A DNA stretch of 64,000 nt from Candidatus Omnitrophota bacterium (GCA_022703055.1 JAKLEP010000003.1:22238-86237); one strand, 5' to 3'; shown: positions 43,481 to 64,000, counted from the first letter of the stretch. The notes: a model not told the origin generated them from the sequence alone. Numbers and translations: made by a program.

Positions 43481-44565
43481 TTCTTTTTCTTTTTGTCGAA
43501 CTGAAAATCTCTTACTGCCGAGGACATTCCTGGAGGGAAATCAGCATCTTTTTCGATTTTATCCCAATTAGCTTTAAACCAGGCAATTGCATTCTTGATT
43601 CCTTCATCAAAAGTAGTATTTGGGCTATAACCGATCAGTTTATTGGCTTTGTCGATTGAGGCACAAAGCCGGTTTTTGGTATCCCACTTTCTTTTGGCGA
43701 CAAATTTGACCCCAGCAGGATTTTTTGTCAATTTATTGATTAAATTCGCCAAATCAATAATTTTGGTTTCTTTTCCTGACGCAAGATTGATATCTTCTCC
43801 CGCTGCCTTATCATTCGCAGCCGCTCTTAGAAGTCCTTCGACGATATCTCCGACATAAGTGAAATCTCTTGTCTCATCTCCTGTTCCAGTAATGGGTAGT
43901 GTTTTTTTCTGCATTGCCCAGAAAATGAAATTGGGGATTACATTACGGTATTGGCCAGGAATCTCTCCAGGGCCATAGGAATTAAAGAACCTAGTTTTAA
44001 CTACTTTTAAGTTGTAGTGATGATTGAAGAAATTGCAATAAAGTTCGCCCAACATTTTTGTTATCTGATAAGGTGAGCTCAAATGCAGAGACATGAATTC
44101 TTCTTTTAACGGTAAAGGTGAGCTGCTACCGTATATTGAACAGCCAGAAGACGCATAAATGAATTTATCAACTCCGGTTAGCACCGAATACTCAAGAAGT
44201 TTTAGCGTGCCCATTCCATTGACCAACAAGTCTTGTTCTGGATGATCTACGGAATTCTGGTTAGCAAAAAAAGCGGCCAGATGAAAAACACAATTTGGTT
44301 TTTCAAAAAATATCCTTTTTAGCTTAATTTCATCAAGGATGCTCCCTTCAACTAGCATGACATTGGGTAGCGATGGAACGCTCCATTTTTGCGCGGAAGA
44401 GAAATCATCCAGGATAATAACCATCTTGGCGCCTAATTCAGCCAGGGCGGCAGTCAAATTACAGCCGATTGCCCCTGCGCCTCCGGAGATAAGAATTTTC
44501 TTCCCTTTAAAATATTCACTAAAATTAACCAAGTTGCCTCCTTTAAAGTATTTTAGTTTTAGCAA
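43477..44565 (-). CDS. NAD-dependent sugar-nucleotide epimerase/dehydratase (extended SDR)
   Basis: The cofactor motif is ISGGAGAIGCNL and the catalytic YxxxK is SPYQITK. The substrate cannot be assigned from sequence alone. Confidence 0.8.
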   Translation of the reverse strand: MLKLKYFKGGNLVNFSEYFKGKKILISGGAGAIGCNLTAALAELGAKMVIILDDFSSAQKWSVPSLPNVMLVEGSILDEIKLKRIFFEKPNCVFHLAAFFANQNSVDHPEQDLLVNGMGTLKLLEYSVLTGVDKFIYASSGCSIYGSSSPLPLKEEFMSLHLSSPYQITKMLGELYCNFFNHHYNLKVVKTRFFNSYGPGEIPGQYRNVIPNFIFWAMQKKTLPITGTGDETRDFTYVGDIVEGLLRAAANDKAAGEDINLASGKETKIIDLANLINKLTKNPAGVKFVAKRKWDTKNRLCASIDKANKLIGYSPNTTFDEGIKNAIAWFKANWDKIEKDADFPPGMSSAVRDFQFDKKKKK

Positions 44566-45979: not shown

Positions 45980-46709
45980 ATATCTCCCTCAAAACAACCC
46001 AGATAAAAATCAAATTGGTTGTGGCGTATCTTTTCCACAGCCGTTTCGGTTCCTGCAGAAATCTGTAAAACCATTCAAAACCTATTTTGCTTACCCATTT
46101 TGGGGCGAATTTACAATAACCAGCTGCGATGTCAATAGTTCCCCCTACGCCAAATGACACAGGTACATTCAACCTGGAAAGGTTTTTACTGATAAACCTT
46201 TCTTTGAGAGGGCTGCTCATGGCGACAAAAAGAACATCGGGCCTTGCTTCATTAATTTTCTTTATAATATCATAATCCTGGGAAAAGTCAAAATATCCGT
46301 GATGACGCCCAACTATATTCAAATTTGGGTGTTTTCCCTTAAGATTAGAGATAGCTTTCTCTAGAATTTCTTCTTTAGCGCCCAAGAAAAACAGCCGGTA
46401 GCCAGTATTTTGAGTTTTTTCAAGAAATCTAAACATTAATTTCGCAGCGCTTACGGGTTCTTTTAGCGATTTTCCTAAAAGCCTGCAGGCAAAATATACT
46501 ACGTGGCTATCAACAGTAAGCATGTCTGCTGATGCATATATTTTCTTAAGTTCCTTATCCTTATGCGCCCTAGCGACTAGTTCCGCACCAGTAGTAAATA
46601 CTGCTCGCGGCCTTCTTTCTTTTATAAACTCTTCCATTGTAGCGACCGCATCATCCAAAGTCACATTATTGTAGTTCAATCCAAAAACTTTGAAAGTTTG
46701 ATTTTTCAT
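45951..46709 (-). CDS. tagA: WecB/TagA/CpsF-family glycosyltransferase (N-acetylmannosaminyl-type)
   Basis: The 252 aa protein has FFLGAKEEILEKA...NIVGRHHGYF and VPVSFGVGGTID. It lies close to wecB, which supplies ManNAc. Confidence 0.8.
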   Translation of the reverse strand: MKNQTFKVFGLNYNNVTLDDAVATMEEFIKERRPRAVFTTGAELVARAHKDKELKKIYASADMLTVDSHVVYFACRLLGKSLKEPVSAAKLMFRFLEKTQNTGYRLFFLGAKEEILEKAISNLKGKHPNLNIVGRHHGYFDFSQDYDIIKKINEARPDVLFVAMSSPLKERFISKNLSRLNVPVSFGVGGTIDIAAGYCKFAPKWVSKIGFEWFYRFLQEPKRLWKRYATTNLIFIWVVLREIFGYEKNSTS

Positions 46710-49972: not shown

Positions 49973-51454
49973 TTACCTGTCTTTATAACAATAAGCTAAT
50001 GTTAACCCGAATAAACTCCAAAACGGAATAGCAAAATATGGTAACTCTAGGAAAACAATAAAATTTGCTAAAACTAACCAAAATAATAAAGCACTGCTTA
50101 ACAAGAGACCGATAAAATCTCGCCTTGTAATAAAATCTATTGTCAATTTGATGAATAATCCCCAAATAAATATTATGAATAATAATCCCATAATACCTGC
50201 TCTGTATAAAATGTGTATATAAGAATTATGGGGTTCTAGCCAGCCAACATCACTCCCAGTATGCCAACCAATGCCGCTGAGTTGATTTGAAGTTTCCAAA
50301 CTAACTGAACGGAATGGCTTCCCAAAATCCTCTCCCAAAATAATTTTGTCATGATAGACTTCCGAAACCATGTCTCGCCAGACAAACATTCTCCATAATA
50401 TATTGTATTCATCCTGGCCTCCAGATCTTGATATAACTGTTTGTTGTGATTGATTATCAACTTTTTTTATTTTCTCTTTATAATAATCAATGGGCAGCTC
50501 TATAGTTTCATAAACTATCCCTACAAGTTGTTTCGGGATTGAAACAGATGATTTTTCATCAGGTATTCGATATTCGCTATACAGTTTTATATTAGAATCC
50601 TTCGGTTTATATAAGGTACGAGCTGAATGTAGTTCTTTATTGAAGACCATGAAATCATTTATTGTACCTTTGATATTGGCCCAGATCTGTATCCGTTTAT
50701 GCATTTTTTCATTTACTAAGAAATTAAAAATTAATAATAAAATAATAAATGGGGCTAGATAAGAAAAAGATTTAAACTTCCAATTTTTAATTTTAATTAT
50801 TAGTAGTGGGTAAACTATAAACAGTAAATATATAATTGATACCCATAAAGAGATAAACATTCCCTTTGTTTGATTGAAAAGATTCCCAATGAATATAAAA
50901 TAAATAAAAATAATCAGTCCAACTAACTTTAAAAATCTATATTCAAAACTAATATATATCGCAAGAATTAAAATATAATATATAAATTGAAAATAGAGAG
51001 AAGGGTATGCTAAAGAGGCAAGAGTGGTTAATAAAATTAAAATAGCTAATTTAATACTGATTTTTTCAAATATGTTTTTATTATAAAAATAATAACTGAA
51101 TATAGCAAATATCGTATAATAAAAAAGGGCGGCGGATCTAAAAGAAAGTGCTCCCCATTTATAATATCCGGATAGCGCCTTTAGAACAATGAAGCCGAGA
51201 AAGGCTAAGAAAAGATAATGCCAAATACCAAGTTTTGCCTTTAATTTTGTAGTCTTATAGGTTAATAAAATAAAACAAGTCCCCAGCAAAATTTCCCCAA
51301 TGAAGATAGGAAAATTGACAAATTCAAATCTTATATTTAATTTTGCAAAATTATTAGCGAATAACGAATATAACAAACAAAATAGCCCAATCCCAAAAAT
51401 ACAAAAAATATCAATCCAAAATATATCATTATAATGTATTTTCTTGAGTTGCAT
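49973..51454 (-). CDS. Wzy-type O-antigen polymerase/ligase family membrane protein (second Wzy_C protein)
   Basis: This 493 aa protein is very hydrophobic and has a central soluble loop. The Wzy_C-like signature is PHNSYIHILYRAGIMGL. Confidence 0.65.
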   Translation of the reverse strand: MQLKKIHYNDIFWIDIFCIFGIGLFCLLYSLFANNFAKLNIRFEFVNFPIFIGEILLGTCFILLTYKTTKLKAKLGIWHYLFLAFLGFIVLKALSGYYKWGALSFRSAALFYYTIFAIFSYYFYNKNIFEKISIKLAILILLTTLASLAYPSLYFQFIYYILILAIYISFEYRFLKLVGLIIFIYFIFIGNLFNQTKGMFISLWVSIIYLLFIVYPLLIIKIKNWKFKSFSYLAPFIILLLIFNFLVNEKMHKRIQIWANIKGTINDFMVFNKELHSARTLYKPKDSNIKLYSEYRIPDEKSSVSIPKQLVGIVYETIELPIDYYKEKIKKVDNQSQQTVISRSGGQDEYNILWRMFVWRDMVSEVYHDKIILGEDFGKPFRSVSLETSNQLSGIGWHTGSDVGWLEPHNSYIHILYRAGIMGLLFIIFIWGLFIKLTIDFITRRDFIGLLLSSALLFWLVLANFIVFLELPYFAIPFWSLFGLTLAYCYKDR

Positions 51455-51529
51455 TAGCTCTCCTTATTAATATACTAAATAATGTTTATAATTGTTTAAA
51501 AACTATTTCACTAAAATTATATTGCTTTA

Positions 51530-52567
51530 TCAAACGTCTTTTTCAATAACATCAAGAATAACTTTAGCAAAGCTTTCTTTTGTAAAAAGTTTGTATTTCT
51601 CAGAACTTAAATATATGCGAGCATTTTCGCGATATTGCTGAATTTCATTTTCAGTCAAAGATTGAAGGTATTCTCTTAAATTAGAATAATCGCTGAATTC
51701 CCTCATATCAATAAAACATTCCTTTGGAACATAATTAGTTATATCTGGAGCTCCTAAATATACTGGAATCGTTCCAGTAAAAAAACAATCAAAGATTTTC
51801 TCGGTAACATAGCCTTCGAATATCATGTTTTCAAAACAAAGGGCAAAATTATATTGTGCAAGCATTTCATATTTCGATTTTATCGAACCCTTATAACATT
51901 TCAAAATCGATTTTCGATTTAATAAATACGGCCAATATAAAATATGTTTTCTCCAGCCGTATCCGTATAAGTCAAAGTCGTTGTATTGGCTGAAAAATTC
52001 TATTGCCCTAATTCTCTCTCTGTAAAGTTCTTTTTTAGCTAGTACTGGCTTTTTGTTAGCATTTATTAAAGTTAAAAATTTTCTTTTCTTGTTTCCCCAT
52101 AGACTCTCTATTACTGAATTTTCTGTTTGCGGCCAGTAAAATTTATGTATATTTTTTGTTTTATCGATATATTCGGATAGCTCATCGCTGGTATTATGAA
52201 GAAAAATATTTTTAAAAAAGGTTGATATTCTTTTTATGTTTTTATAAAGTTCGGGGGCCACTACCAATGGTTCAAATATAAAAAAAGAATTTAATATTAC
52301 ATTCCGCTTTAGGGCAAGCTTTCGATAGTTTTTTACTACTCCTAAAGAAATATAAATGTTTAATTTTTCTGACTCCGAGCCATTCGATAAATAATCGGCA
52401 GTAAATACGCTATAGCCTTTAGATTCAAGAAACTTTTTAAGATAAATAAACGGTAAAAGACAATTATCTCTATTCAGATTATTATTCTTTTCATCGAATA
52501 GTCTATTTTTATAATAGCTTTTTGAGGTTGGATCGATAAATATTTTTATATCATTTACATTAACCAT
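51530..52567 (-). CDS. GT10-family (alpha-1,3/4-fucosyltransferase-like) glycosyltransferase
   Basis: FALCFENMIFEGYVTEKIFDCFFTGTIPVYLGAP matches the FucT motif (FENS...YVTEK..DA....IPIY.G). Confidence 0.75.
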   Translation of the reverse strand: MVNVNDIKIFIDPTSKSYYKNRLFDEKNNNLNRDNCLLPFIYLKKFLESKGYSVFTADYLSNGSESEKLNIYISLGVVKNYRKLALKRNVILNSFFIFEPLVVAPELYKNIKRISTFFKNIFLHNTSDELSEYIDKTKNIHKFYWPQTENSVIESLWGNKKRKFLTLINANKKPVLAKKELYRERIRAIEFFSQYNDFDLYGYGWRKHILYWPYLLNRKSILKCYKGSIKSKYEMLAQYNFALCFENMIFEGYVTEKIFDCFFTGTIPVYLGAPDITNYVPKECFIDMREFSDYSNLREYLQSLTENEIQQYRENARIYLSSEKYKLFTKESFAKVILDVIEKDV

Positions 52568-53589
52568 AGATTTAATGCATTTATTTGTTTTTTAACATTA
52601 AATAGGGTAAATAATAACAAAAAACCGAACATGAATGATTTAGATAAATTTTTTATAGTCTTTGGGCTAGACAAAAGTTTATGCCAAGAAAATGATTTTA
52701 ATAGAAGACTTCGTGCTTCGTTTTGCTTTCTTTGTTTAATTAGATTAAATGAGATTTTGACATCATCCCAAAATTTGTTAAATTCATATTGTCCTAATAC
52801 AGATTTTTTTAATTGAATATTTTTTGCTTCCAAAGATGAATTCAGGTACTCGTCTAAAATAACAAAATGATTTGCTCTACTAATGCGCGTAGATTCATAT
52901 CTATACGTTCCTCGAGATCTGCTAATTCGCCTTCTGATTAGGCGCTCTTTCAGAATTCCTATAGAATATTTTTCTGCGATTTTTAGCCACAAAGCCATAT
53001 CGCTTCCCGAACCATCTGAATCGCCGTATTTTAATGTTTCATCAAACAGGCCAACGTTATCTATAACATTCCTTTTTGTCATAAATGTTGGCGTAACCAA
53101 GAAGCTCCCAGATTTATATAATAATTCTTGAAATAGAACACTGAAATCTAAGATAGCACTATTTCCAATGTTTTTAGGTAGCTCTACTCCGTTCCCGATA
53201 AATATGTCTTTTTCATTGATTAATTTATCCAAAGAAAAAACCGCACCAACTCTTAAATTTGATAATAAAAAGTTAACTTCCTTTTCGATAATTTGCGGTT
53301 CGTAAATATCGTCTGAATGATATATTGCTATACATTCTCCTTTTGCCATCTTTAACCCGAAATTCCAATTAGTTATACAGCTTGTTGTTTTTGAACTTTT
53401 GTAATATTTTATCCTTTCATCCTTGAAGGAATCCACTATCTCCTTCGTGTTGTCCGTGGAGGCGTTATCACAAACTATTATCTCCAAATCTTTATAAGTC
53501 TGATTAATAATAGATTCTAAGGATTTCTTTAAGTAATTTGAGTCATTATAAGTTGGGACACAAACACTAACAAGAGGGTTATTTACCAT
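52555..53589 (-). CDS. GT2-family glycosyltransferase
   Basis: The N-terminus reads VSVCVPTYNDSNYLKKSLESIINQTYKDLEIIVCDNASTDNT, followed by a DxD-type SDD. Confidence 0.85.
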   Translation of the reverse strand: MVNNPLVSVCVPTYNDSNYLKKSLESIINQTYKDLEIIVCDNASTDNTKEIVDSFKDERIKYYKSSKTTSCITNWNFGLKMAKGECIAIYHSDDIYEPQIIEKEVNFLLSNLRVGAVFSLDKLINEKDIFIGNGVELPKNIGNSAILDFSVLFQELLYKSGSFLVTPTFMTKRNVIDNVGLFDETLKYGDSDGSGSDMALWLKIAEKYSIGILKERLIRRRISRSRGTYRYESTRISRANHFVILDEYLNSSLEAKNIQLKKSVLGQYEFNKFWDDVKISFNLIKQRKQNEARSLLLKSFSWHKLLSSPKTIKNLSKSFMFGFLLLFTLFNVKKQINALNLWLM

Positions 53590-54604
53590 ATTTTATCCCT
53601 GTAAGATTAAAAATTTCTTTAATTCTTTTTTCATATGTATGTTCGCTTAGTGTTCTTTTATAGCCATTCTGTGCGATTTCGCCACGCTCAGATTCGTTTT
53701 TTAAATAATATCTTATTTTTTCAATTAAGTCGTCCATATCCATATAAATCGTGATTTCCTTGCCAACCTCATAACAGTGCTCTAATCCTTCAACGTAATA
53801 AGATAATTGAAACCCTCCGCAACCAGGAATTTCAAAATGTCTACCCTTTATTTGTTCTCTATTTTTTACGTCTCCCTTTTTAAAACGCGACATCGCATTC
53901 CTGAATGCCTTTGCGGAAGATAGCATATATCTAATATCTAAGCTACCGCTATTTGATAAATTTAAATTTATCTTGCTCTGATTAAAAACATTTATCAATT
54001 CCTCGAAGGAAATATATCCATTTTTCCATCCCGCTCCCACTATATAAACATTGATACCCGCTTTCCTCAGCTTTTTTAATATCCATTCTCTATAGGGATG
54101 ATACGCTCCGGCAAAAGAAACATCGTACTTTTTAGGAAAATCATTTTTTGCCCATAAATAGTGATTACATCCGAAAGGCGAATAGATCACTTTCTCTAAT
54201 CCCCTCTCTCGCCATTTTCTGATTCCATTAAAATCAGGCGTGGTTATGTAGTCAAAATGAGGCGCCCAATAGGTAGAAAACTTTATTCTCCACTGATCGT
54301 CCCAGAAATAACATAAAGTTTTAGTATGTTCTCTTATTTGGTCTAAAACTTCAGGAATAAATTGATTTGTATATAAAGAAAATATGGTTAATTCAGGTTT
54401 TTCTTTTTTAATCGTTCTTAGCAACTGCTCGTTGAGTAAATACTTTTCTTGTTTATCAAAAACGTTCTTGTAATCAAAAAATAAAGCATTCTCTCCTAAC
54501 ACTCTCTTTAATACATCATAAATATTGTAATAATCGTAAGAGAAACCTCGCTCTTTAATTCCATAATCATATAGCATCGAAACCATTAAGACTTTAGTAT
54601 TCAT
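53579..54604 (-). CDS. CgeB-family / DUF3880-type glycosyltransferase
   Basis: The C-terminal region GRHFEIPGCGGFQLS...IAQNGYKRTLSEHTYEKR is typical of the CgeB-like Glyco_trans_1_2 family. Confidence 0.65.
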   Translation of the reverse strand: MNTKVLMVSMLYDYGIKERGFSYDYYNIYDVLKRVLGENALFFDYKNVFDKQEKYLLNEQLLRTIKKEKPELTIFSLYTNQFIPEVLDQIREHTKTLCYFWDDQWRIKFSTYWAPHFDYITTPDFNGIRKWRERGLEKVIYSPFGCNHYLWAKNDFPKKYDVSFAGAYHPYREWILKKLRKAGINVYIVGAGWKNGYISFEELINVFNQSKINLNLSNSGSLDIRYMLSSAKAFRNAMSRFKKGDVKNREQIKGRHFEIPGCGGFQLSYYVEGLEHCYEVGKEITIYMDMDDLIEKIRYYLKNESERGEIAQNGYKRTLSEHTYEKRIKEIFNLTGIKYGK

Positions 54605-56085
54605 AAATTTCCAAATACAATTGATTTAATTTTTTGTTCAAAATCGTCTAAAAAGGGCATTTTTAACGGAAATTTAAGCCATTTCCTTGCTAAAATCACC
54701 TCAATCAATAAAACGTAAATCCCTGTTGCTGATAGTAACATGATTGACTGAAAAAGTGTGGGCATCAATAACACTTTCTTCATGGCTGAGAAAAATGCAA
54801 TTACCGGTAAGCTAAGGGTAAATCCATAAAAAATTCGTTTCCAGGGAATCTGAATTGGCAGAAGCTTTCTCATTTTAAAATAAAGATGGACTAAGGCAAG
54901 CAACCATCCAAGGAAAAGAGCCAGTCCTGCTCCAAGAAACGGGTTAATTTTTACGAACAAAAAGACGCCTGTTATCGCTACGAAAGCCCCGGTTATACCT
55001 GGAAAAATAAGAGGCTTCATCTTCATTTCGGCATGAGACACCATTCCTAGCGTGGAAAAAATCATCCTCAGCAACTCTGAAACTGCGCCCCACAAAACAA
55101 TGCTTCCTACTGCATGAAACTTCTCGTCAGTAAAAACTGTGATAAATAAATGTCCCCCCGCAGATACATAAACTGCTACAATTATTGCTGCAGGAAAAAA
55201 GGCATAAGAATAATTATTCCAGGCAATAGTTTTCTCTTTTTTATCGCTATTAGAAATATCATTATAAAAAACAGGATGATAGTATTGATTAAATAAGGTG
55301 TCAAAGGAAAGCATCAAATTGCTTCCTATTCCGAAACCAACAACAAAAAAACCAAGAAGCTCAGTTCCTGCAATGCTTTGAAAAACAAAACGATAACCTT
55401 GCGTATGGCACCAGTACAAGAAAGTTCCGATTGCAAGCGGCCAGGCGAAATTAAATACCGCAGACAAAGTAAAACCTTCTTTATTGTTGGATGTGGCGCT
55501 ATTGTTTTTTCTTAATATTTTAAAGAGAACTGGTATCGCTAGAAATAGAACCAACGCATTCCCAAGTAATTGTCCCAAAAGCCAATATTCAGCTTTTGAA
55601 AATAACCTCAAGACAAAAAATATAGAAATACCTATGCCTAGCCATAAAGTCAAAACGCTAAAAAAAACGAATAAAAATCTTTTCCTAAACAGATTTAACC
55701 AGCCTAAAACAGATGTGTTCAGGCTATAAAGTAGAATACTTCCAGCAATAATAATAAATATCCATAAGGAACTGGCTATAATGCCTATTCCAATCAAGTA
55801 GTTTAGAATAACAATGCCAAATCCCGCTAGCAATGACACAATTATGAAGTATTTAAATAAACAAATCAAATTCTTATGAACAACTTCAAGCGTATCCCAT
55901 TCAATAATTTTCCTATTTACATACATAACAACTGGGTTAAGCAAAACCAGCGCAAACCAGCCATAAATTGCTAAAAAAATATTTAAACGGCCAATTTCAG
56001 TAGGTGAAAGTAAAGTAGTAAATAAACGAATAGAAATAATGGAGGTAATCATTATCAGAATTCGCCCAAGTACTATGATAAACAT
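54601..56085 (-). CDS. wzx: Wzx-like polysaccharide flippase (MOP superfamily)
   Basis: The 494 aa protein has about 12-14 hydrophobic helices throughout. The call rests on its position within the GT cluster and on topology, with no specific motif. Confidence 0.6.
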   Translation of the reverse strand: MFIIVLGRILIMITSIISIRLFTTLLSPTEIGRLNIFLAIYGWFALVLLNPVVMYVNRKIIEWDTLEVVHKNLICLFKYFIIVSLLAGFGIVILNYLIGIGIIASSLWIFIIIAGSILLYSLNTSVLGWLNLFRKRFLFVFFSVLTLWLGIGISIFFVLRLFSKAEYWLLGQLLGNALVLFLAIPVLFKILRKNNSATSNNKEGFTLSAVFNFAWPLAIGTFLYWCHTQGYRFVFQSIAGTELLGFFVVGFGIGSNLMLSFDTLFNQYYHPVFYNDISNSDKKEKTIAWNNYSYAFFPAAIIVAVYVSAGGHLFITVFTDEKFHAVGSIVLWGAVSELLRMIFSTLGMVSHAEMKMKPLIFPGITGAFVAITGVFLFVKINPFLGAGLALFLGWLLALVHLYFKMRKLLPIQIPWKRIFYGFTLSLPVIAFFSAMKKVLLMPTLFQSIMLLSATGIYVLLIEVILARKWLKFPLKMPFLDDFEQKIKSIVFGNL

Positions 56086-56145
56086 TTTACTGATCTTCCT
56101 TTTCTTTAGAAATATTCATTCCTGATTTTGAAGTTAGCGGAATAG

Positions 56146-57150
56146 TTAAGTTTCATTTTTGCGCTTATAATTAATCAAAGATTTTCTTAAGTTATAAATA
56201 AAAGTACAGAGATTGCTTGGTAAAAACATTAAAGGGAAAATGAAAAACCAAAAAAAAGGATATTTTTTGAATTCTTTAATGAATTTTAAAGTGTAAGGTT
56301 TAAAAACTATGCTATTACTTCTCGAGACTAATATTTCTCTAGGTAGGCTACTAAACATCACTTCAACTGTTCGTCTGACAGATTTCCTGCTATACTTGCT
56401 GCTGTGAGCATTTATTATCCTCATCAAGCTAATTGTATTTTTCAGATTTTTCTCACCATGTTTATCCCATCGCAAGTTATTATACCGATATAAAACATAA
56501 GGTTTTGAGATGCAATAAGAACTATTCCCTGGTAAAAGCGAAAGCAGGGTGGCAAACTGAATCCAAAACGAACCCATATAAATACTGTTATCCGTCTTTT
56601 CCCATAATGAACGATTGACGATATTTGATGAAAGAAGAACCGGAGTCAACCTAACAGTATGCAAAAAATCATCAGCGGTTTTACAAAAGATATCGCTTTT
56701 TGAAGTAATTCCATATCTACCTATTTTATATTGTTGTTTTAAATCTAGGCTGGCAGACTGCCAATTAACAAATATTGCGGCAATATTTCTATTTTCTTCT
56801 AGAACACTTAAAACTTTTTTTAGCGAGCCTTCTAGCATCTTGTCATCATCGCTAAAAAGCCATACATACTCTCCCTTTGATCTTCTTACAGACAAATCAA
56901 TATTTCTGTCAGGGCCAAGATCCATTTCATTTCTAAAATAAGAAAATATTCCGGGGTATCTTTCTTTATATTCGTCAATTATCATAGGTGTTTTATCTGT
57001 AGAAGCATTATCGCTGATTACTATTTCGATTTTTTCCTCAATATCGTTTAATTGAGAAACAATACTATCAAGCGCTTCCCTTATATATTCTGATCCATTA
57101 TAAGTTGGAATTCCAATAGACAACCTCAAACGAGAAGTACTTAATTCCAT
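56146..57150 (-). CDS. GT2-family glycosyltransferase
   Basis: The N-terminus reads LSIGIPTYNGSEYIREALDSIVSQ...EIVISDNASTDKT, followed by a FSDDD DxD motif. The C-terminus has a TM segment. Confidence 0.85.
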   Translation of the reverse strand: MELSTSRLRLSIGIPTYNGSEYIREALDSIVSQLNDIEEKIEIVISDNASTDKTPMIIDEYKERYPGIFSYFRNEMDLGPDRNIDLSVRRSKGEYVWLFSDDDKMLEGSLKKVLSVLEENRNIAAIFVNWQSASLDLKQQYKIGRYGITSKSDIFCKTADDFLHTVRLTPVLLSSNIVNRSLWEKTDNSIYMGSFWIQFATLLSLLPGNSSYCISKPYVLYRYNNLRWDKHGEKNLKNTISLMRIINAHSSKYSRKSVRRTVEVMFSSLPREILVSRSNSIVFKPYTLKFIKEFKKYPFFWFFIFPLMFLPSNLCTFIYNLRKSLINYKRKNET

Positions 57151-58550
57151 CTAGAACTCCTGAAATTTGTTAAGCTAAAAACTTTTTTTACCGTCTGAAC
57201 AGGAGATTTTAGTAAATAAACAAATCCTTTATAAACAAAAAAGGCTCTTCCTCTTATAGCAAAAAAACCAGAAGTCATTTTTGCCTTTAATCTCAATAGA
57301 TCTTGATAAGAATGTTCGACAGTAAAATAGGGAACTTCTTTATCTGACAACCAGTAATCGTCCCCAATCAATCTTTTTTCTTTCATTAAATCAAAAACTT
57401 CAGTATTTGGGTATACCCACAAAATGGCAACTCCGTAAACTCCAAATTTTCTTATCTTATACAACTCTTTAAGGAAATTCACGGACTCCTCTACTGTTTT
57501 ATCGCTTTCTCCGGGAAAACCTAACATCATATAAAGGGTTATACTTATTTTTTTTACCTTCGTTAAGTTTCTGAAGGTCTCTTTTACGTCTTCCCGAGTT
57601 ATGTTTTTATGGATTGAAGCTAATAGTTTCTCACTGCCTGTTTCAAGCCCAAAACCGATGCTTACAAATCCCGCCTCTTCCATCAGCTTAAACATCTCTT
57701 TGCTGGAAGGCTTTATCCTTGCCGAACACGAGAGTTTCACTTTAATATTTCGTTTTACTATTTCCTTACAAAATTCCATCGCCCTTTCTACATCAAGAGT
57801 AAAGGTATCATCCGCTATTTGTATAGAATTAATGTTTTTAAATGCGCTTAATATATATTCTATTTCCTTTATAATATTATCAACAGATCTTTTCCTATAT
57901 ATCCTCTTTGATATTGTATGCAAACAGCAAAAACTGCATTTAAAAGGACATCCTCTGCTTGTCAAAATACAAGCCATTTTCCTTTTGCTAGTGATAAAGA
58001 GTTCATGTTTTGGAAAAGGTAGTTCGTCTAAGTTTTCTACTAACTCTCTTTCTTCGGTTTTGACCACTTGCCCGTTTCTTCTGTAAGAAATGCCTCTTAT
58101 CTTTGAGGTGTCTTCAGCTTTATCCAAAGCCCTTAACAATTCAACTATTGTCTTCTCGCCTTCTCCTAAAACCGCATAATCAATATCAAAATTGTTTAGA
58201 AGTTGCTCGTACATTATGGTTGCATGCACTCCCCCGATAATTACCTTGATATCATTTTTTAATTCTTTTGCAATTTTAAATACTTTGTAACTGGTAACTC
58301 TATTCATGGAGAATAGTTGCATTAAAAGATAATCCGGGTTAAAGCCAGAAATCTCTTCTCTGATATCATTTAATGAAGCAACCTCGTCAGATGTATTATA
58401 ATTTTTCGTCTTAATAGCGTACCCGGATTTTTCAATTACAGAATGAAGATACCCCAATCCTAAACTGTATGAATTTTCATCGTCGGATATATTTTTAAGT
58501 TTAAAACTTTCTTCTAAGGGAGCGCTTATTAGGAGTATTCTTTTCATCAC
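57141..58550 (-). CDS. B12-binding (class B) radical SAM enzyme no. 3
   Basis: The N-terminus has VIIGGVHATI and the radical SAM motif is SRGCPFKCSFCC. FGLETGSEKLL and MLGFPGES are also present. Confidence 0.85.
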   Translation of the reverse strand: MMKRILLISAPLEESFKLKNISDDENSYSLGLGYLHSVIEKSGYAIKTKNYNTSDEVASLNDIREEISGFNPDYLLMQLFSMNRVTSYKVFKIAKELKNDIKVIIGGVHATIMYEQLLNNFDIDYAVLGEGEKTIVELLRALDKAEDTSKIRGISYRRNGQVVKTEERELVENLDELPFPKHELFITSKRKMACILTSRGCPFKCSFCCLHTISKRIYRKRSVDNIIKEIEYILSAFKNINSIQIADDTFTLDVERAMEFCKEIVKRNIKVKLSCSARIKPSSKEMFKLMEEAGFVSIGFGLETGSEKLLASIHKNITREDVKETFRNLTKVKKISITLYMMLGFPGESDKTVEESVNFLKELYKIRKFGVYGVAILWVYPNTEVFDLMKEKRLIGDDYWLSDKEVPYFTVEHSYQDLLRLKAKMTSGFFAIRGRAFFVYKGFVYLLKSPVQTVKKVFSLTNFRSSRWN

Positions 58551-58551
58551 T

Positions 58552-59925
58552 TTATTTATTTTTAATAAAGATTATTTGTTTTTTAAAAATAAAATACATA
58601 AAAAAAGGAAAAATATATACGATAATTGTTTTTATCAAAATATCCAGTTTGAATATTGGGTATTTTTCTAAAATTATAGTTGGGAGCTCAGCAGAGAATT
58701 TAAATAAATGTGAAATTATATAAATTAAATACAAAAGGCCCCCTTTAAAAATTACTATTAAGAATTCTGTTGGCTGCTTAAATAAAGTCTTCCACACTTC
58801 AAGCTGGTAAAACAAATTACCCCCACTCCATCCGCCTTCTGATACCGGCTTAACCGAGAAATCCTGAATGAAACTTAGATTTGTTTTATTGCCCTCATAA
58901 GATAAAAGAGAAAATGTAGAAACTAATGCGATCGCGAAAAATATAAATAATATTTTTTTATAACCATATTTTTTCTGAATCTTTCCTAACAAGAAAGAAA
59001 ACGGAAAAACAACGATTGGCAATAAGGAAAAAATGATATACCTATAGCCATACCAGCCGCCAAAATGAGGAACGCCAGCAGTTATATAAAAATTAAATAA
59101 TAATGAAAGAAAAAGATAAATTAAGGGCTTTTTGTTTTCGTATCTCATAAAAAATAACGCATAAAGCCCCAATAACATAAAAGGTACGGTGTAAATAAGC
59201 CCCATGTCAGGCCAAAAGAATATATAAAGCATTCTTTGAATTAAAAATAACGGACCGCGCCATTTAAGAAACTCTCCAGCATTTGATGCATGAAAATAAG
59301 TCTCTCCATAAACAAAAGTAGGCAATATTTTGAAAATAAAAGCAAGAAACAGCGTTATAGCATAAACACCTATAATTTCCTTGATTTTTTCTTTATACGA
59401 AAATCTTCCGTTACGAAAACAGAAAATAACCATTGGCGCAATCAAAGATACGAATACATTGTTATACCTTACTAAAAAAATTAAGCCATTGACTAACCCT
59501 AAAATTAATACATGAAACGCGGATGTTGTATCTAAAAATTTAATTTTTGTATCTTTCAAAATGAAATAAACAATAATGCACATTAGAAATAACTCGTAAA
59601 TATGCGAAAAAACCGGCCGCCGAAAAACATACAAGGGAAACATTTGTAAAAGCAATAAGAAAAGAATTGTAAAAAATGATATCTTTTCATCAAAATAGTA
59701 GCGCAAAGCTTTATAAAGCAGCAAACAAAGGAGCCAAAAATAGAAATAAGTCGAAATCAAAAAGCCAAAAAGAGACCAAGAAGGCCATACATTTTCTTTT
59801 TCTCTCTTTTGAACAATTGAAGCACCTTGCAGGCGGTCTATCAGGGAAAAGGCGAAAACAAAAGGCGAAGCCATAATTCCTGCGCCAATATTATGCATTG
59901 GCATACCCTGCCCTTGAAATTCCAT
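58552..59925 (-). CDS. Large polytopic membrane protein, possible GT-C-type glycosyltransferase or polymerase (function unassigned)
   Basis: The 457 aa protein has at least 10 hydrophobic segments. It lies downstream of a polyprenyl-P GT2-like gene. I recognise no diagnostic motif. Confidence 0.45.
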   Translation of the reverse strand: MEFQGQGMPMHNIGAGIMASPFVFAFSLIDRLQGASIVQKREKENVWPSWSLFGFLISTYFYFWLLCLLLYKALRYYFDEKISFFTILFLLLLQMFPLYVFRRPVFSHIYELFLMCIIVYFILKDTKIKFLDTTSAFHVLILGLVNGLIFLVRYNNVFVSLIAPMVIFCFRNGRFSYKEKIKEIIGVYAITLFLAFIFKILPTFVYGETYFHASNAGEFLKWRGPLFLIQRMLYIFFWPDMGLIYTVPFMLLGLYALFFMRYENKKPLIYLFLSLLFNFYITAGVPHFGGWYGYRYIIFSLLPIVVFPFSFLLGKIQKKYGYKKILFIFFAIALVSTFSLLSYEGNKTNLSFIQDFSVKPVSEGGWSGGNLFYQLEVWKTLFKQPTEFLIVIFKGGLLYLIYIISHLFKFSAELPTIILEKYPIFKLDILIKTIIVYIFPFFMYFIFKKQIIFIKNK

Positions 59926-60035
59926 TTCGTTATCATAAGAAGGGAATTTAAAAAAAGCTAACGAAGAAGCATGAGAAAAATAAGATTCGTCTGATATCTT
60001 TTTTATTTATATGAATAATTCAACATAACATTTTA

Positions 60036-60893
60036 TTAATCTGAAATTTGTTCAATATTAACTGAAGTATGGCCAAATTCCTGAAACCGGTTAGTTTTTA
60101 CTTTTACATCGCAAGGATTACAATGTCCGAAAAAATTGCAACGCCTAGGGATATCTTCTATTTTAAAATTCTCGTCTAATAAATTGCCTATCGGTTGCCG
60201 ATTTTCATATAAATCAGCATGACAGCGATAAACAGCTGCTCCCGGACCGACAATAAGCTCGGTGGTTTTACATAGGCATTGCTTTTTAGATTTCTTACTG
60301 CAAGAACCAACATATTTGTATGTGCCGTAAAGCTGGCCATTATATTCTCCAAGGAATTCTTTAGTACGGAAATCGATACCTTCTGATAAACAAGCAACTT
60401 GTGCTGAAATAATTTCGTCTTTTTGCTCAGGATGTAGCACGCCCCATACCCCAACGCTAAACCCAAGCGCAAGCAGGCGTTTAACTTTTAAAACCGTATC
60501 ATTCAGATTCATTACTGCCGGATGATAACTAACTCTAATCGATGCGTAAGGGGCATCACGCTTAAGCCGATCAGAATCAACCTTATCGGAAAATTCATCT
60601 ACATCAAACTGCAAATTAGTCAATATGTCTATGTGCAATGTAGGTTTAATGTTATTAATAATATATATGAAATCTTTATGCAAGCTAGGCTCTCCTCCCT
60701 GTAAAGTTACGGGGAGATCCTCTCGCGAGTTTATTCTATTAAGCGCCTTAACCCAGTCGTTACCAGAAATAATTTTATTTGCAAAATTTTTGCCGCTAAA
60801 GTAATTAATGCAATAACTACAACGGTAATTACAGGCAAAAGTTAAGAACGCGGCAATGTAATTATAATTTGAAGGGATTGTGATATTTTTCAT
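60036..60893 (-). CDS. Radical SAM enzyme with a Cys-rich C-terminal region (possible auxiliary Fe-S, SPASM/twitch-like)
   Basis: The radical SAM motif is FACNYRCSYCIN (CxxxCxxC), and GGEPSL is present. The C-terminal cysteines follow the pattern C-x7-C-x-C ... C ... C-x5-C-x2-C. Confidence 0.8.
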   Translation of the reverse strand: MKNITIPSNYNYIAAFLTFACNYRCSYCINYFSGKNFANKIISGNDWVKALNRINSREDLPVTLQGGEPSLHKDFIYIINNIKPTLHIDILTNLQFDVDEFSDKVDSDRLKRDAPYASIRVSYHPAVMNLNDTVLKVKRLLALGFSVGVWGVLHPEQKDEIISAQVACLSEGIDFRTKEFLGEYNGQLYGTYKYVGSCSKKSKKQCLCKTTELIVGPGAAVYRCHADLYENRQPIGNLLDENFKIEDIPRRCNFFGHCNPCDVKVKTNRFQEFGHTSVNIEQISD

Positions 60894-60899
60894 GGATTA

Positions 60900-61679
60900 T
60901 CAGCCCTGGCGTCTAATTCTTGTGACCGAATCAGAAGCAAAATCTTTATTTTGAGATGTTTTTGAACTTCTCATAAAATAATAATCCCAAATCAAAAATA
61001 TATAAGCTTTAGCTATTTTTGCAAAGGAATAAAATGATATTGCCTTGGACTTTCCTGACTTACGCGAAAGTAACCTGCAAGGCACCTCTGCAAAAAGATA
61101 GCCTTTCTTTGTCAAACGAACCAAAATATCAGTTTGAAAGAAAAAACCATATGACCTGCTGTTTAATTGTCGTAAAATAGACCTTCTGTATAATATTGTC
61201 CCGTTTGTATAATTAAAATTGATAGCGAAAGTAAAATTAACGATCATCCGGTAAAGATTCGACAGAATCCTTCGGGATAAAGGCCTTGTTTCTTGGTTAA
61301 AAAAGAAAGGAACCACAATATCTACATGGTCGAGTAATTTAAAATAGCGCAATATTTCAACCGGGTCGGTCTCATTATCTCCGGGGATTAACAACACTGC
61401 CTTACCGGTAGCGCTATCAACTCCATCCCAAAAAGAACCGCCGATACCCCATGGCCGCTCATGTTCGAGAAGTCTAACGCAGTTATTTTGTTTAATAATA
61501 CTTTTAACAATATCAGCTGTTTTATCGGTTGAGCCATCATTGACGACAATCACCTCGCCATCAATGCCAAAATTATCCATAGCCATTAAAACAGCTAAAA
61601 CAGTAGCTTCAATACTACCCTCTTCATTAAGTGCTGGAACTATTACCGAAAGGACGTTGCCTTTTTTATTTTTATCCAT
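60900..61679 (-). CDS. GT2 glycosyltransferase of the polyprenyl-phosphate sugar synthase type (Dpm1/GtrB/ArnC-like)
   Basis: LSVIVPALNEEGSIEATV...EVIVVNDGSTDKTADIV and LIPGDNE are typical of the Dpm1/ArnC clade. Confidence 0.75.
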   Translation of the reverse strand: MDKNKKGNVLSVIVPALNEEGSIEATVLAVLMAMDNFGIDGEVIVVNDGSTDKTADIVKSIIKQNNCVRLLEHERPWGIGGSFWDGVDSATGKAVLLIPGDNETDPVEILRYFKLLDHVDIVVPFFFNQETRPLSRRILSNLYRMIVNFTFAINFNYTNGTILYRRSILRQLNSRSYGFFFQTDILVRLTKKGYLFAEVPCRLLSRKSGKSKAISFYSFAKIAKAYIFLIWDYYFMRSSKTSQNKDFASDSVTRIRRQG

Positions 61680-61705: not shown

Positions 61706-62197
61706 CTATACCCGCATATAACCGGCTCTGTCAGAAACCAGCCAGTCATCGACTAGCTTAGTAAAAGAACGCTTGTCGCTGTAGGGATCATAAATATCTA
61801 AATTGATAAGTTTCATTAATGCGATGTCGTCTTTACCGCAGCAATGCGACGGCCCAAGGAGCTTAAAATAATTATTAACCCCAGTTGCGATGAATTTTAC
61901 GTTTAATTTTTGTAAAACTACATCATTACGCATCTGCTCTAATGACCTGAAAACCAAGAAATTAACTATTGAATAAACTAGCGGTATTAATCCGCTCATG
62001 CTCATACCCGCAGCAATACCGATAGTGCCCTGTTCCATTACGCCGCAATTAATTATACGTTTTGGATATTCTGCACGCAGCTTATCAATTACTCCAAAAC
62101 CCATATCGCAAACTAGCAAATAATAACGAGGGTCTTTACGAAAGTACGGTAATAAAGCGTTGCCAATATCTCTACGGTAATTTTTAACTCTGGCCAT
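61706..62197 (-). CDS. Transketolase-like ThDP enzyme, small subunit containing only the Pyr domain
   Basis: From the internal Met (MARVKNY...) the sequence aligns to the transketolase C-section pattern (NCGVMEQGTIGIAAGMSMSG with the catalytic Glu). It stops at ...AGYMRV, where the extra C-terminal domain would begin. The track ORF extends to 62257. Confidence 0.7.
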   Translation of the reverse strand: MARVKNYRRDIGNALLPYFRKDPRYYLLVCDMGFGVIDKLRAEYPKRIINCGVMEQGTIGIAAGMSMSGLIPLVYSIVNFLVFRSLEQMRNDVVLQKLNVKFIATGVNNYFKLLGPSHCCGKDDIALMKLINLDIYDPYSDKRSFTKLVDDWLVSDRAGYMRV

Positions 62198-63017
62198 AAA
62201 GATCCTCCGCATCCAATTCTTCGCCTGTAGGTACGCGGTAATGAAATTTAGGCACATTTTCCATGCATTTTAAACCATAACCTTTAATTGTCTTAGCCAC
62301 TATAACTCTTGGAACATTTTTAGAAGGTTTCTTTTTTAGCCGCTCGAACAATCCAGCCACACAATGACCGGAACATACTTCCGGATGAAGACCGAATCCT
62401 TTAAGGCGGTTTATAATTTCATAATCTTTTCTGTCTAAAATGTTGGCGAGAAAATCCATGGCCTGTAAACGGTTTGCATCAATTATTATTGTAAGATTAT
62501 TTACTTTATGCTTAACTGCAAATTGCAAAGCTTCCCAGTTAGAGCCTTCCTGCAATTCCCCGTCGCCTGTTAAGCAAAAAGTATGATATTTTTTCTTTTG
62601 TTTTTTTGCTCCATAAGCTATGCCGACTGCGATAGGCAATCCATGCCCTAATGAGCCACAGCCAACCTCTAATCCATAGCAAAGCTTACGTTCAACACAA
62701 CCAGATAATTTGCCTGAACGAGTATAAAAATTCCCCCATTCTTTTTTAGGGATAACACCAATATCAGACAATATTGCAAAAAGTCCATAACAGCCATGAG
62801 CCTTAGAGAGAACTAAACGATCACGATCTTCCCATTCCGGGTTGTTTTTCTGATAATTCATAATTCCATAATAAAGAACTGTCAATATCTCTACTGTGGA
62901 AAAAGATGGTGCTATGTGGCCAGCTTGATTACGCACACAAATATCAATTATGTCTTTACGGATTGCTTTTGCTTTTTTATTTAAAATTGCTGTATTAATT
63001 TTATTCATATCTGTCAA
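62184..63017 (-). CDS. Transketolase-like ThDP enzyme, N-terminal (PP-domain) subunit
   Basis: The motifs are SKAHGCYG and GSLGHGLPIAVG. The ThDP motif is GDGELQEGSNWEALQFAVKHKVNNLTIIIDAN. Confidence 0.85.
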   Translation of the reverse strand: MTDMNKINTAILNKKAKAIRKDIIDICVRNQAGHIAPSFSTVEILTVLYYGIMNYQKNNPEWEDRDRLVLSKAHGCYGLFAILSDIGVIPKKEWGNFYTRSGKLSGCVERKLCYGLEVGCGSLGHGLPIAVGIAYGAKKQKKKYHTFCLTGDGELQEGSNWEALQFAVKHKVNNLTIIIDANRLQAMDFLANILDRKDYEIINRLKGFGLHPEVCSGHCVAGLFERLKKKPSKNVPRVIVAKTIKGYGLKCMENVPKFHYRVPTGEELDAEDLYGQS

Positions 63018-64000
63018 ATAAAGTTAAAATGGGCTGCCGGATACTTGAGCTCCCAAAGGTAAGTATTGATTTCATCAAGCCGGCAATTTTTCCGGCATTT
63101 ATAAGTATTTAAATTTGTTGCACAGTATTTGATAATTCGGCGTCTCGCCAAGCTGTTAAATATATCCTTAAACGGACTTTTATATATATTGCCAAAGTTG
63201 AATTCTTTTCTTCCTAGATATGAGCTGCAGGCAAAAAAATTTCCCTCTGCATCAAGATATGCCCAAAACGGCAGGCCTAAACAATGCGCATACCGGCGCT
63301 TACTTTTTAATTTCATCATTGTATGCTTACGCAGATAGATTTTGAAACTGTCATTTTCCAGCTTTTTAAATTTATCTTCATTTTTTATGCAGTTTTCGTA
63401 TCGATAATCATCCTTGACTTTTGAATGGCTATATAAATGTTTCGAGTACGGCTTAATTATCAGATAATCCACACCTAAATCGCGAAGTTTTTCAGCAAGC
63501 TTAACTTCTTCACCGCTATTTTCTTTTATTAAAAGAAACTGTACGCCAATTGTAACCGGATATTTATTGCGCCTCTTAAGCACTACTGCAGTTGAAAGAT
63601 TATCCAATACACGATTAAAGTCCTCTTTTGCGGCACGATGAATTTTCATATATGTTTTAGCACTGGCTGCATCAAGGCTTATCCGTATCCAGGACAGATG
63701 TGGTAATATTTTTTTAGCCAATTCACCGGATAATTTAACACCATTTGTTGTGACTGCACTATCAATTCCACAAAGTTTCGTGTATTCTATAATTTCAGCA
63801 ATATCTTTATGTAAGAGAGGTTCTCCCTCTCCAGCAAACATTATGCTTTTTACTCCGCAATGGCTTGCTGTTTTGATAGTCTTTTTTAAAGAACTTGTAT
63901 CTAAAAATACTCTTTTATACTTGAGGTAGTCTTTGGCACAAAATATACAACGGTGGTTACATCCTCCCGAAGGAGAAATTTCCATATATATTGGATAAAT
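63014..64000 (-). CDS. Radical SAM enzyme with a Cys-rich C-terminus. It is probably 5-prime partial because the frame stays open to the window edge.
   Basis: The radical SAM motif is GGCNHRCIFCAK (CxxxCxxC), and GEGEPLL is present. The C-terminal cysteines follow C-x17-C ... C-x9-C-x3-C. The 15 nt upstream of the ATG at 63985 are in frame and contain no stop. Confidence 0.8.
   Translation of the reverse strand: MYPIYMEISPSGGCNHRCIFCAKDYLKYKRVFLDTSSLKKTIKTASHCGVKSIMFAGEGEPLLHKDIAEIIEYTKLCGIDSAVTTNGVKLSGELAKKILPHLSWIRISLDAASAKTYMKIHRAAKEDFNRVLDNLSTAVVLKRRNKYPVTIGVQFLLIKENSGEEVKLAEKLRDLGVDYLIIKPYSKHLYSHSKVKDDYRYENCIKNEDKFKKLENDSFKIYLRKHTMMKLKSKRRYAHCLGLPFWAYLDAEGNFFACSSYLGRKEFNFGNIYKSPFKDIFNSLARRRIIKYCATNLNTYKCRKNCRLDEINTYLWELKYPAAHFNFI

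Follow-up and report, generated by a model that had tools for sequence, protein, structure and literature searches.

A small radical SAM enzyme, a Dpm1-like glycosyltransferase and a truncated GT-C-like membrane protein of an Omnitrophota bacterium appear to be a rearranged fragment of a widespread, apparently sugar-tailoring cassette

Introduction

What would a radical S-adenosylmethionine (SAM) enzyme do if its gene lay between those of the two components of a surface-glycan modification system? The pairing of a Dpm1-like synthase with a membrane transferase of the GT-C fold is a well-known two-component arrangement of this kind, and the question is raised by a stretch of 64,000 nt of Candidatus Omnitrophota DNA (GCA_022703055.1 JAKLEP010000003.1:22238-86237), called the window throughout, which at positions 58,552-61,679 encodes a family 2 glycosyltransferase (GT2), a small radical SAM enzyme (rSAM) and a 457-aa membrane protein (MEMB, a name that we also use for its family). 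According to the original prediction, the GT2 would make a polyprenyl-phosphate sugar, the rSAM would edit it on its carrier, and the membrane protein, acting as a GT-C enzyme, would transfer it in the periplasm. Our results suggest that the three genes are, by all appearances, a rearranged fragment of a larger, widespread and uncharacterised cassette that would tailor a sugar, and that the small rSAM could act before the sugar is loaded on a lipid. In what follows, compared loci or contigs carry a number with the letter L and database proteins a number with the letter P.

Results

All three genes were confirmed on the minus strand, with products of 259 aa for the GT2 (60900-61679), 285 aa for the rSAM (60036-60893) and 457 aa for MEMB (58552-59925). 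The tight adjacency of GT2 and rSAM also stands, with 6 nt between the GT2 stop codon and the rSAM gene; the rSAM and MEMB genes are 110 nt apart. The number of homologue clusters found in the database (2052 for GT2, 2518 for rSAM and 106 for MEMB), with E-values down to 1e-100 and below, indicates that these are genuine genes and not chance open reading frames (ORFs). A database entry identical to the rSAM (100%) is labelled Candidatus Omnitrophica.

Comparative genomics places these genes in a larger conserved cassette, so that the idea of a three-gene system as a unit has to be given up. We assembled 40 rSAM-centred loci from a scan of one genome per species, added four contig look-ups (44 in all) and clustered the neighbouring ORFs. 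The organisms represented are Omnitrophota, Brocadia and other Planctomycetota, Deltaproteobacteria, Nitrospirae, Elusimicrobia, Patescibacteria/Peribacteria (candidate phyla radiation, CPR) and DPANN archaea. The most frequent companions of the small rSAM are an rSAM/SPASM enzyme (36/44), a B12-binding rSAM (B12-rSAM; 34/44), a GT2 of the same cluster (29/44), the alpha/beta pair of a thiamine pyrophosphate (TPP)-dependent enzyme of transketolase or E1 type (25/44) and a family 9 glycosyltransferase (GT9; 23/44). The recurrent unit thus comprises a GT9, one or two rSAM/SPASM enzymes of ~355 aa, a split TPP-dependent transketolase/E1-like enzyme, a Dpm1-like GT2 without transmembrane (TM) helices, at least one B12-rSAM, the 285-aa rSAM and, usually, a GT-C enzyme, the slot for which is variable and is filled by PMT/PMT_2, YfhO, DUF2079 or MEMB. 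The Deltaproteobacteria have an eight-gene version that forms a unit of its own, flanked on one side by a Cu-ATPase gene and on the other by type IV pilus genes. The literature that we searched holds no published description of such a cassette, and a preprint on Omnitrophota mentions radical SAM only in passing.

Within the cassette, the association of GT2 and small rSAM is genuine: their genes are neighbours in 9 of the 44 loci, and one natural protein (P0348) is a fusion of the two. Immediately upstream of the small rSAM, nine loci have a GT2 gene, nine a GT9, six a SPASM enzyme and five a NUDIX hydrolase. The third member of the predicted trio fares differently, since the MEMB family is absent from all 40 rSAM genome loci, and among 60 MEMB-centred metagenome loci a relative of the rSAM was found only in the organism of the window and in two others, where it is divergent (~200 bits). 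Other GT-C families do take this place. A large polytopic protein is encoded at position +1 of the rSAM in 15/40 loci (37.5%), compared to 7.2% of the non-adjacent ORFs of the same loci (Fisher p = 5e-4 for the +1 and -1 neighbours combined, on loci that are not independent), and by Pfam several rSAM-adjacent polytopic proteins are PMT_2 or YfhO, others remaining unclassified. Alignment of the MEMB profile by hhalign with the rSAM-adjacent membrane clusters c12, c24, c28, c29, c49, c135, c167 and c171 gave a best probability of 22%, so the presence of a GT-C enzyme beside the rSAM rests on the PMT_2/YfhO matches of some of these proteins, with c29, c167 and c171 unclassified. All five GT2-centred loci have a PMT, PMT_2, YfhO or DUF2079 gene within 10 kb. 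Taken together, the +1 polytopic proteins, the Pfam matches and the GT2-centred loci argue that the trio recurs at the level of fold, with interchangeable GT-C families.

The cassette is not always complete. In L113, L116 and L118 the GT2 and a GT-C enzyme occur with no small rSAM nearby. Conversely, in DPANN archaea (Nanoarchaeota, Woesearchaeota and Pacearchaeota; L036, L037, L039, L041-L043 and L045) the small rSAM is found mostly with a SPASM rSAM, longer loci adding a GT9, a TPP enzyme and a NUDIX hydrolase, and GT2 and GT-C are missing; rSAM loci of Nitrospirae likewise have neither, and in both groups the rSAM has a GT9 or a NUDIX hydrolase beside it. The archaeal rSAMs are ~46-55% identical to that of the window, which implies transfer between domains. 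In Brocadia and DPANN loci (L007, L008, L036, L039, L041 and L042) a stand-alone NUDIX gene precedes the small rSAM, either immediately or with one gene in between, and natural GT2::NUDIX fusions exist as well (P0306, encoded at 10001-11209 of L116, and P0343).

The membrane protein was predicted to have at least 10 TM segments and a GT-C-like fold, and both expectations are borne out. A hydropathy scan gives ~13 hydrophobic segments and the structure model is a helical bundle (predicted local distance difference test score, pLDDT, 88; predicted template-modelling score 0.90). Searched with Foldseek against the PDB, the model has GT-C enzymes for all its top 18 matches (AglB, PglB, STT3, ArnT, Pmt1/2 and AftA among them), at E-values of 0.05-1. 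By sequence, MEMB of the window has no significant Pfam match, and neither the single sequence nor a 46-sequence profile finds a PDB match up to E 10; 2/46 family members match PMT_2 (PF13231), and NCBIfam model NF047440, 'putative glycosyltransferase', scores 30.5 bits against a cut-off of 200. A role as Wzy, ligase or flippase was considered and rejected, there being no Wzy_C or Polysacc_synt match and, among the top 18 fold matches, none other than to GT-C. In seven unrelated loci a MEMB homologue has an AglJ/PpgS/ArnC-like GT2 beside or near it, a pairing typical of GT-C enzymes that use polyprenyl-phosphate-monosaccharide donors. Two loci have a GmhA-like SIS-domain gene directly upstream of a full-length MEMB homologue and an AglJ/PpgS-like GT2 after it (L053 1701-2267 and L055 4906-5472). 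There are hints that the MEMB family could use a polyprenyl-phosphate-heptose donor.

In the window, however, MEMB is shorter than its relatives. Most homologues run on N-terminally through TM1 for ~55-60 residues beyond its start, and just after TM1 all 45 aligned homologues carry a D-D-x-x-Y stretch that is missing here; it lies where GT-C enzymes such as PglB, ArnT, PMT and Emb have their catalytic acidic motif, in the first external loop. In the frame of MEMB, the stretch ahead of the ATG at 59925 reads IKKISDESYFSHASSLAFFKFPSYDNE (59926..60006, minus strand), which from its sequence and translation is an untranslated in-frame remnant of the 5' coding region. The remnant aligns to residues ~31-58 of the full-length homologue P0002, reads SDE where homologues have the DD motif, contains no ATG, GTG or TTG, and is preceded by a TAA stop at 60007-60009; this 5' sequence is identical in three assemblies. 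Judging from the sequence, the start codon and TM1 are deleted, with the first ~30-35 codons gone and the DD-motif stretch left untranslated, and the GT-C gene of the window is probably inactive. As the remaining 457 codons are intact, either the truncation is recent or the product keeps some role.

The closest relative indicates how the truncation may have arisen. Locus L113 has, in order, a SPASM rSAM, a PMT_2 gene, the N- and C-terminal parts of the transketolase-like enzyme, the GT2 and a full-length MEMB of 517 aa, with identities to the proteins of the window of 47% (SPASM rSAM), 69% and 75% (the two transketolase parts), 66% (GT2) and 62% (MEMB, the nearest homologue being at this same 62%). 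There the GT2 stop overlaps the MEMB start and no rSAM lies in between. The rSAM gene of the window occupies precisely the junction at which GT2 and MEMB meet in L113, and it is there that the 5' end of MEMB is missing. The simplest reading would be that recombination of a 'GT2-rSAM' cassette with a 'GT2-MEMB' pair left a scar, and the loss of the MEMB 5' end is probably the mark of the event that placed the rSAM gene between its two neighbours. The "intermediate genomic position" of the rSAM, on which the original prediction had built, is then a product of local rearrangement.

The assignment of the GT2 (minus strand, PF00535 E 1e-21) to enzymes like Dpm1, ArnC and GtrB is upheld. The best PDB matches of the single sequence are GtrB (sll0501), ArnC and dolichyl-phosphate (Dol-P)-mannose synthase. 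A family profile of 36 sequences and 257 positions, searched against the PDB, matches Dol-P-mannose synthase (E 7.5e-21, positions 5-228 of 257), ArnC (E 4e-20, 6-219) and GtrB (E 5e-20, 3-158) best, the first two over nearly their full length, while chondroitin/heparosan synthases, TagF, SpsA and others are weaker and mostly limited to the N-terminal ~110-130 positions. At the level of sequence the GT2 thus groups with polyprenyl-phosphate synthases and not with processive enzymes, as had been proposed. All members of the family alignment share D48, S50, D52, D101 and D120. The longest NCBIfam matches are to ArnC, AglJ, PpgS and Dol-P-hexose transferase, every one below its cut-off, and the top scores (PgfS 56 bits, ArnC 38.5, PpgS 34.4) are all far under the equivalog cut-offs. 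A Kyte-Doolittle scan detected no hydrophobic segment in the GT2, only an amphipathic C-terminal helix; the lack of C-terminal TM helices, which synthases of the GtrB, ArnC and archaeal DPMS types possess, excludes just the GtrB/ArnC subtype, and the enzyme resembles the TM-less Dpm1/PpgS class. We regard it as a putative polyprenyl-phosphate sugar synthase.

The small rSAM (minus strand) belongs to an uncharacterised, SPASM/twitch-like family. It matches PF04055 with 33.5 bits against a cut-off of 29.5, carries the motif CNYRCSYC with invariant C21, C25 and C28 (CX3CX2C), and shares with its relatives five further invariant cysteines (C208, C224, C252, C258 and C261) in a family alignment whose mean column identity is 64% across bacteria and DPANN archaea. 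The five C-terminal cysteines would be consistent with one or more auxiliary Fe-S clusters, although there is no match to the Pfam SPASM domain (PF13186) and no NCBIfam model scores above its cut-off. Its model (pLDDT 90.9) is a partial TIM barrel, with anSME (E 4e-6, template-modelling (TM) score 0.55), viperin, SpeY (20% identity over ~157 residues), EpeE and GDGT-MAS as nearest folds, which suggests a hydrogen-abstracting enzyme of the dehydrogenase or epimerase type. PDB matches by sequence cover mostly the N-terminal core, weak ones to MoaA (E ~1e-4) reaching profile position 186. A hydrophobicity scan detected no membrane-binding segment.

A HMMER scan of 1.84 billion representative proteins returned 127 matches to the rSAM at E up to 1e-30, among them natural fusions that name possible partners. 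In P0348 the rSAM part (49% identical to that of the window) is joined by a hydrophobic linker helix to a cassette-type GT2 (33% identical to the GT2 of the window). The partner of the rSAM part is a heptose-1-phosphate adenylyltransferase-like domain in P0380 (rSAM part 38%), a GT9 with TPR and GT1-like domains in P0423 (33%), and a GT9 with a GT1 domain in P0480 (27%).

Other members of the cassette, overlooked by the original prediction as was the shortness of the MEMB N-terminus, flank the three genes. Upstream, on the minus strand, the pyrimidine-binding subunit of the split TPP enzyme (61706..62257, PF02779 1.7e-13; 163 aa at 61706-62197 in the source annotation, a gene call in L048) is preceded by the TPP-binding N-terminal subunit of this transketolase/DXS-like enzyme (62184..63017, PF00456 1.6e-26 and PF13292) and by an rSAM/SPASM enzyme ('SPASM A', 63014..64000, PF04055 and PF13186), which is cut by the window end and has 358 aa on the source contig (L048). 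Beyond position 64000 a GT9 gene lies directly upstream of the SPASM rSAM on that contig (L048 1-6794). Downstream, 1 nt after MEMB, a B12-rSAM (57141..58550, minus strand, PF02310 and PF04055) is a probable member of the cassette. A B12-rSAM also adjoins MEMB homologues in L046, L086 and L103, lies near one in L065 and is present as fragments in L074. As to the split TPP enzyme, its two maximal ORFs overlap by up to 74 nt, its pyrimidine-binding subunit, very short at 163-183 aa, has no transketolase C-terminal domain, and in other cassettes an E1 alpha/beta pair takes its position.

The surrounding locus, O-antigen- or capsule-like in content, runs on one strand from ~38.2 kb to past the window end. 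By rising coordinate it encodes a Wzy_C protein, a B12-rSAM, an initiating Bac_transf enzyme, a UDP-GlcNAc 2-epimerase and an epimerase; then a second B12-rSAM, a WecG glycosyltransferase, an oxidoreductase fusion, a GT4, a polytopic protein, a GT10, a GT2, a GT1-like enzyme, a second polytopic protein and another GT2; and finally the third B12-rSAM (57141-58550), MEMB, the small rSAM, the cassette GT2, the split transketolase-like enzyme and the rSAM/SPASM enzyme. Past the GT9 on L048 follows a CDP-yersiniose-like set (an NTP_transferase, two epimerase/dehydratases, a 580-aa YerE-like TPP enzyme and a DegT/DdhC-like enzyme), whose gene content suggests that a branched-chain deoxysugar is also made at the locus. 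The GC content is 0.29-0.37 in the polysaccharide locus (0.29-0.34 at 50000-60000) against ~0.40 in the housekeeping part of the window, consistent with horizontally acquired and shuffled surface-glycan genes; the remaining genes of the window are housekeeping ones (DnaE, GuaA/B, GroEL, aminoacyl-tRNA synthetases, PGK, TIM, Opp). With five rSAM genes on the minus strand (39459-40904, 44543-45979, 57141-58550, 60036-60893 and 63014-64000), three of them B12-binding, one SPASM and one small, the locus is unusually rich in radical enzymes for a cluster of this type. The oxidoreductase fusion, of 714 aa, joins zinc-ADH-like and GFO/IDH/MocA parts (46706-48850, minus strand).

Discussion

Between editing of a nucleoside diphosphate (NDP)-sugar and editing of a lipid-linked sugar by the small rSAM, we tentatively favour the former, with a probability of roughly 45%. 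The reason is that a nucleotide-activated sugar is what all the partners of the rSAM have in common, being the product of the nucleotidyltransferase, the substrate of the NUDIX hydrolase and the donor of both GT9 and GT2. Additionally, the retention of the rSAM in archaeal and Nitrospirae loci that lack both GT2 and GT-C, and its fusions to GT9 and nucleotidyltransferase domains, indicate that editing on a lipid is not required and is not the most parsimonious assumption. In the mechanism that we propose, TPP and radical chemistry would build and tailor a nucleotide-activated sugar, perhaps heptose-derived, in the cytoplasm, and the small rSAM would most likely abstract a hydrogen atom from the sugar and thereby dehydrogenate or epimerise it while nucleotide-linked. 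The tailored sugar could then be transferred directly in the cytoplasm by the GT9, or be loaded on polyprenyl phosphate by the Dpm1-like GT2 and moved by the GT-C enzyme to a surface acceptor outside the membrane. A heptose origin may be considered on the strength of gene content: GT9 is the heptosyltransferase family, transketolase makes sedoheptulose-7-phosphate, and in L116 and L118 the cassette has GmhA-like and HldE-like genes immediately upstream.

Several observations weigh against this proposal or loosen its supports. None of the GmhA-like and HldE-like matches reaches its NCBIfam cut-off, they occur in few loci only, and no such genes were found in the window. The GT2::rSAM fusion and the frequent order GT2-rSAM-GT-C would fit editing on the lipid equally well. 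The fold matches of MEMB have weak E-values, and its 457 codons are otherwise intact in AT-rich DNA, so that the truncated protein may still be expressed and act. Finally, the loci behind the co-occurrence counts are not phylogenetically independent, and the B12-rSAM and SPASM clusters, built by single linkage, may mix paralogues.

Editing on the carrier, by oxidation or epimerisation at the cytoplasmic face of the membrane for example, would make the cassette an anaerobic counterpart to ArnC-ArnD-ArnT or to DprE1/E2 with Emb/Aft. It can call on the order GT2, small rSAM, GT-C, which recurs in L012, L013 and L016 (with PMT_2), in L015 (PMT_2-like) and, with an unclassified membrane protein of ~15-19 hydrophobic segments, in L019, as well as on the fusion with its hydrophobic linker helix, on the Dpm1-like and GT-C-like character of the two outer proteins of the window, and on an rSAM fold that is nearest to dehydrogenase and epimerase types. 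We nevertheless consider it unlikely, if a serious candidate: the rSAM persists, at ~50% identity, in DPANN and Nitrospirae without either glycosyltransferase, its other partners and fusions (GT9, NUDIX and nucleotidyltransferase) share an NDP-sugar and not a lipid-linked one, three loci (L113, L116 and L118) have GT2 and GT-C without it nearby, the enzyme has no membrane-binding segment, and the GT-C protein of the window is truncated. The view that the three genes are mere neighbours in a shuffled O-antigen locus, with no specific functional relation and with MEMB as a decaying pseudogene, takes that same truncation as its evidence, along with the low and patchy GC content, the different gene order of L113 and the score of 0/40 for the MEMB family in rSAM loci. 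It is very improbable in the face of the nine adjacent GT2-rSAM pairs and their fusion in one protein, the direct coupling of MEMB to an orthologous GT2 in L113, and the flanking SPASM rSAM, TPP enzyme, GT9 and B12-rSAM, which form a cassette of at least seven phylum-level lineages.

It is also conceivable that the substrate is no monosaccharide but an assembled glycan, a glycolipid or lipid, or a protein or peptide, adjacency to glycosyltransferases then reflecting a shared pathway and not consecutive steps. anSME and many SPASM enzymes modify peptides, and the best fold match of the rSAM is precisely anSME; the lipid enzyme GDGT-MAS is matched too, the best PDB matches by sequence are peptide maturases (CteB-like 5wgg, SkfB and PqqE, over the N-terminal ~65 residues only), and the deltaproteobacterial cassette adjoins pilin, TPR and PMT_2 genes. 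Neither a precursor-peptide gene nor a recognition element for ribosomally synthesised and post-translationally modified peptides was noticed, however, and the enzyme has just 285 aa. Its consistent partners are all sugar-nucleotide enzymes or glycosyltransferases, its fusions are to GT2, GT9 and a nucleotidyltransferase, and the fold match of highest identity (20%) is SpeY, which dehydrogenates a sugar-like cyclitol; a substrate of this kind is improbable in our estimation. A more ambitious extension of the NDP-sugar proposal would see in the small rSAM a new class of oxygen- and NAD-independent sugar editor that, with the SPASM and B12-rSAM enzymes and the TPP enzyme, builds a novel radical-tailored sugar, possibly heptose-derived, branched or higher-carbon. 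At its boldest it would place this chemistry on the polyprenyl-phosphate carrier, as the first radical SAM on-carrier step feeding a GT-C enzyme; such an extension is speculative and, on the sequences at hand, rather unlikely to hold.

The cassette would work like the Arn and Gtr two-component systems and recalls both DprE1/E2 with Emb/Aft and HpnI/HpnK/HpnJ, while being a member of none. In the Arn pathway, a deformylation tailors the carrier-linked sugar between two transfers, with undecaprenyl-phosphate Ara4FN as the intermediate and a GT-C enzyme carrying out the transfer to lipid A. As in ArnC-ArnD-ArnT, a Dpm1-like GT2 is paired here with a GT-C protein; ArnC is among the best family matches of the GT2 (4e-20) and ArnT gives the top TM-score for the MEMB model, 0.45. 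Unlike in Arn, the candidate for tailoring is an rSAM and not an ArnD-type deformylase, and it would more likely act at the nucleotide-sugar stage; the GT2 of the window lacks the two C-terminal TM helices of ArnC, and no equivalents of ArnA or ArnB were found in the cassette. With the O-antigen glucosylation modules GtrA/GtrB/GtrC, and with TM-less synthases such as human-type Dpm1 or mycobacterial PpgS and its GT-C partner, the cassette shares the combination of a polyprenyl-phosphate-sugar synthase and a polytopic periplasmic transferase. Among NCBIfam models that match over nearly the full length, the best for this GT2, and likewise for the GT2s beside MEMB homologues, are PpgS, AglJ and Dol-P-hexose transferase. 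No GtrA-like flippase was seen among ORFs of at least 80 aa at 50-64 kb, where no hidden Markov model search was aimed at GtrA. Three rSAM classes, a TPP enzyme and a GT9 set the cassette apart from Gtr modules.

DprE1 and DprE2, which depend on FAD/NADH, epimerise decaprenyl-phosphoryl-ribose, oxidising and then reducing one carbon, before the GT-C arabinosyltransferases Emb and Aft act, and the lipid-linked donor comes from a UbiA-type phosphoribosyltransferase. They offer a precedent for redox editing on a lipid, and AftA, AftB and EmbC are among the fold matches of MEMB; the proposed editor here is a radical SAM enzyme and the donor synthase a GT2. The rSAM itself is similar to SPASM/twitch enzymes (anSME, SpeY, BtrN-type, EpeE) in fold and in its CX3CX2C motif; its five invariant C-terminal cysteines are arranged as C-x15-C ... 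C-x5-C-x2-C, in contrast to the canonical seven-cysteine SPASM motif. The tailoring of hopanoid side chains by HpnI (a GT2), HpnK and HpnJ (a B12-type rSAM) is a precedent in which an rSAM remodels a sugar after its attachment to a lipid by the GT2. The neighbouring B12-rSAM has HpnJ among its best NCBIfam matches, at 161.8 bits against a cut-off of 577.6, but hopanoid genes are missing, and the cassette lies in a polysaccharide context and extends to archaea. A ladderane or hopanoid role, to which NCBIfam matches of the B12-rSAM pointed, was rejected, as the scores are far below the cut-offs and the cassette occurs well outside anammox bacteria.

What is new in the present case is a conserved version of the two-component arrangement that is tied to three rSAM classes and a TPP enzyme, undescribed in the literature searched. 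Uncultivated anaerobes commonly carry the cassette (Omnitrophota, anammox Planctomycetota, Deltaproteobacteria, CPR bacteria and DPANN archaea), and many of them are tiny, host-associated cells with the surface as their main interface. The small rSAM family is large (more than 2,500 sequence clusters), unusually conserved (~50-70% identity between bacteria and DPANN archaea) and uncharacterised, and its natural fusions point to candidate substrates, NDP-heptose-like sugars or polyprenyl-phosphate derivatives. Solving its function would add a new radical SAM reaction on a sugar and probably a new microbial sugar. For the window itself, a rearranged copy in which the GT-C enzyme is probably dead, the lesson is more modest.

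Two further features of the cassette in other genomes deserve mention. In Deltaproteobacteria (L001 8857-16870; L051 10891-20888) it stands back-to-back with genes for PMT_2 or TPR membrane proteins, type IV pilin (N_methyl), PilR/PilS and pilus ATPases. A possible target of the deltaproteobacterial product is the glycosylation of pilin. In many cassettes, though not in that of the window, the second SPASM rSAM is followed by a pair of small membrane proteins of ~173 and ~175 aa (L116 14940-15996, L114 11901-12946, L119 11961-13018, L028 8279-9307 and L033 8901-9916), each of which has ~3-4 hydrophobic segments and a soluble tail and matches no Pfam or NCBIfam model.

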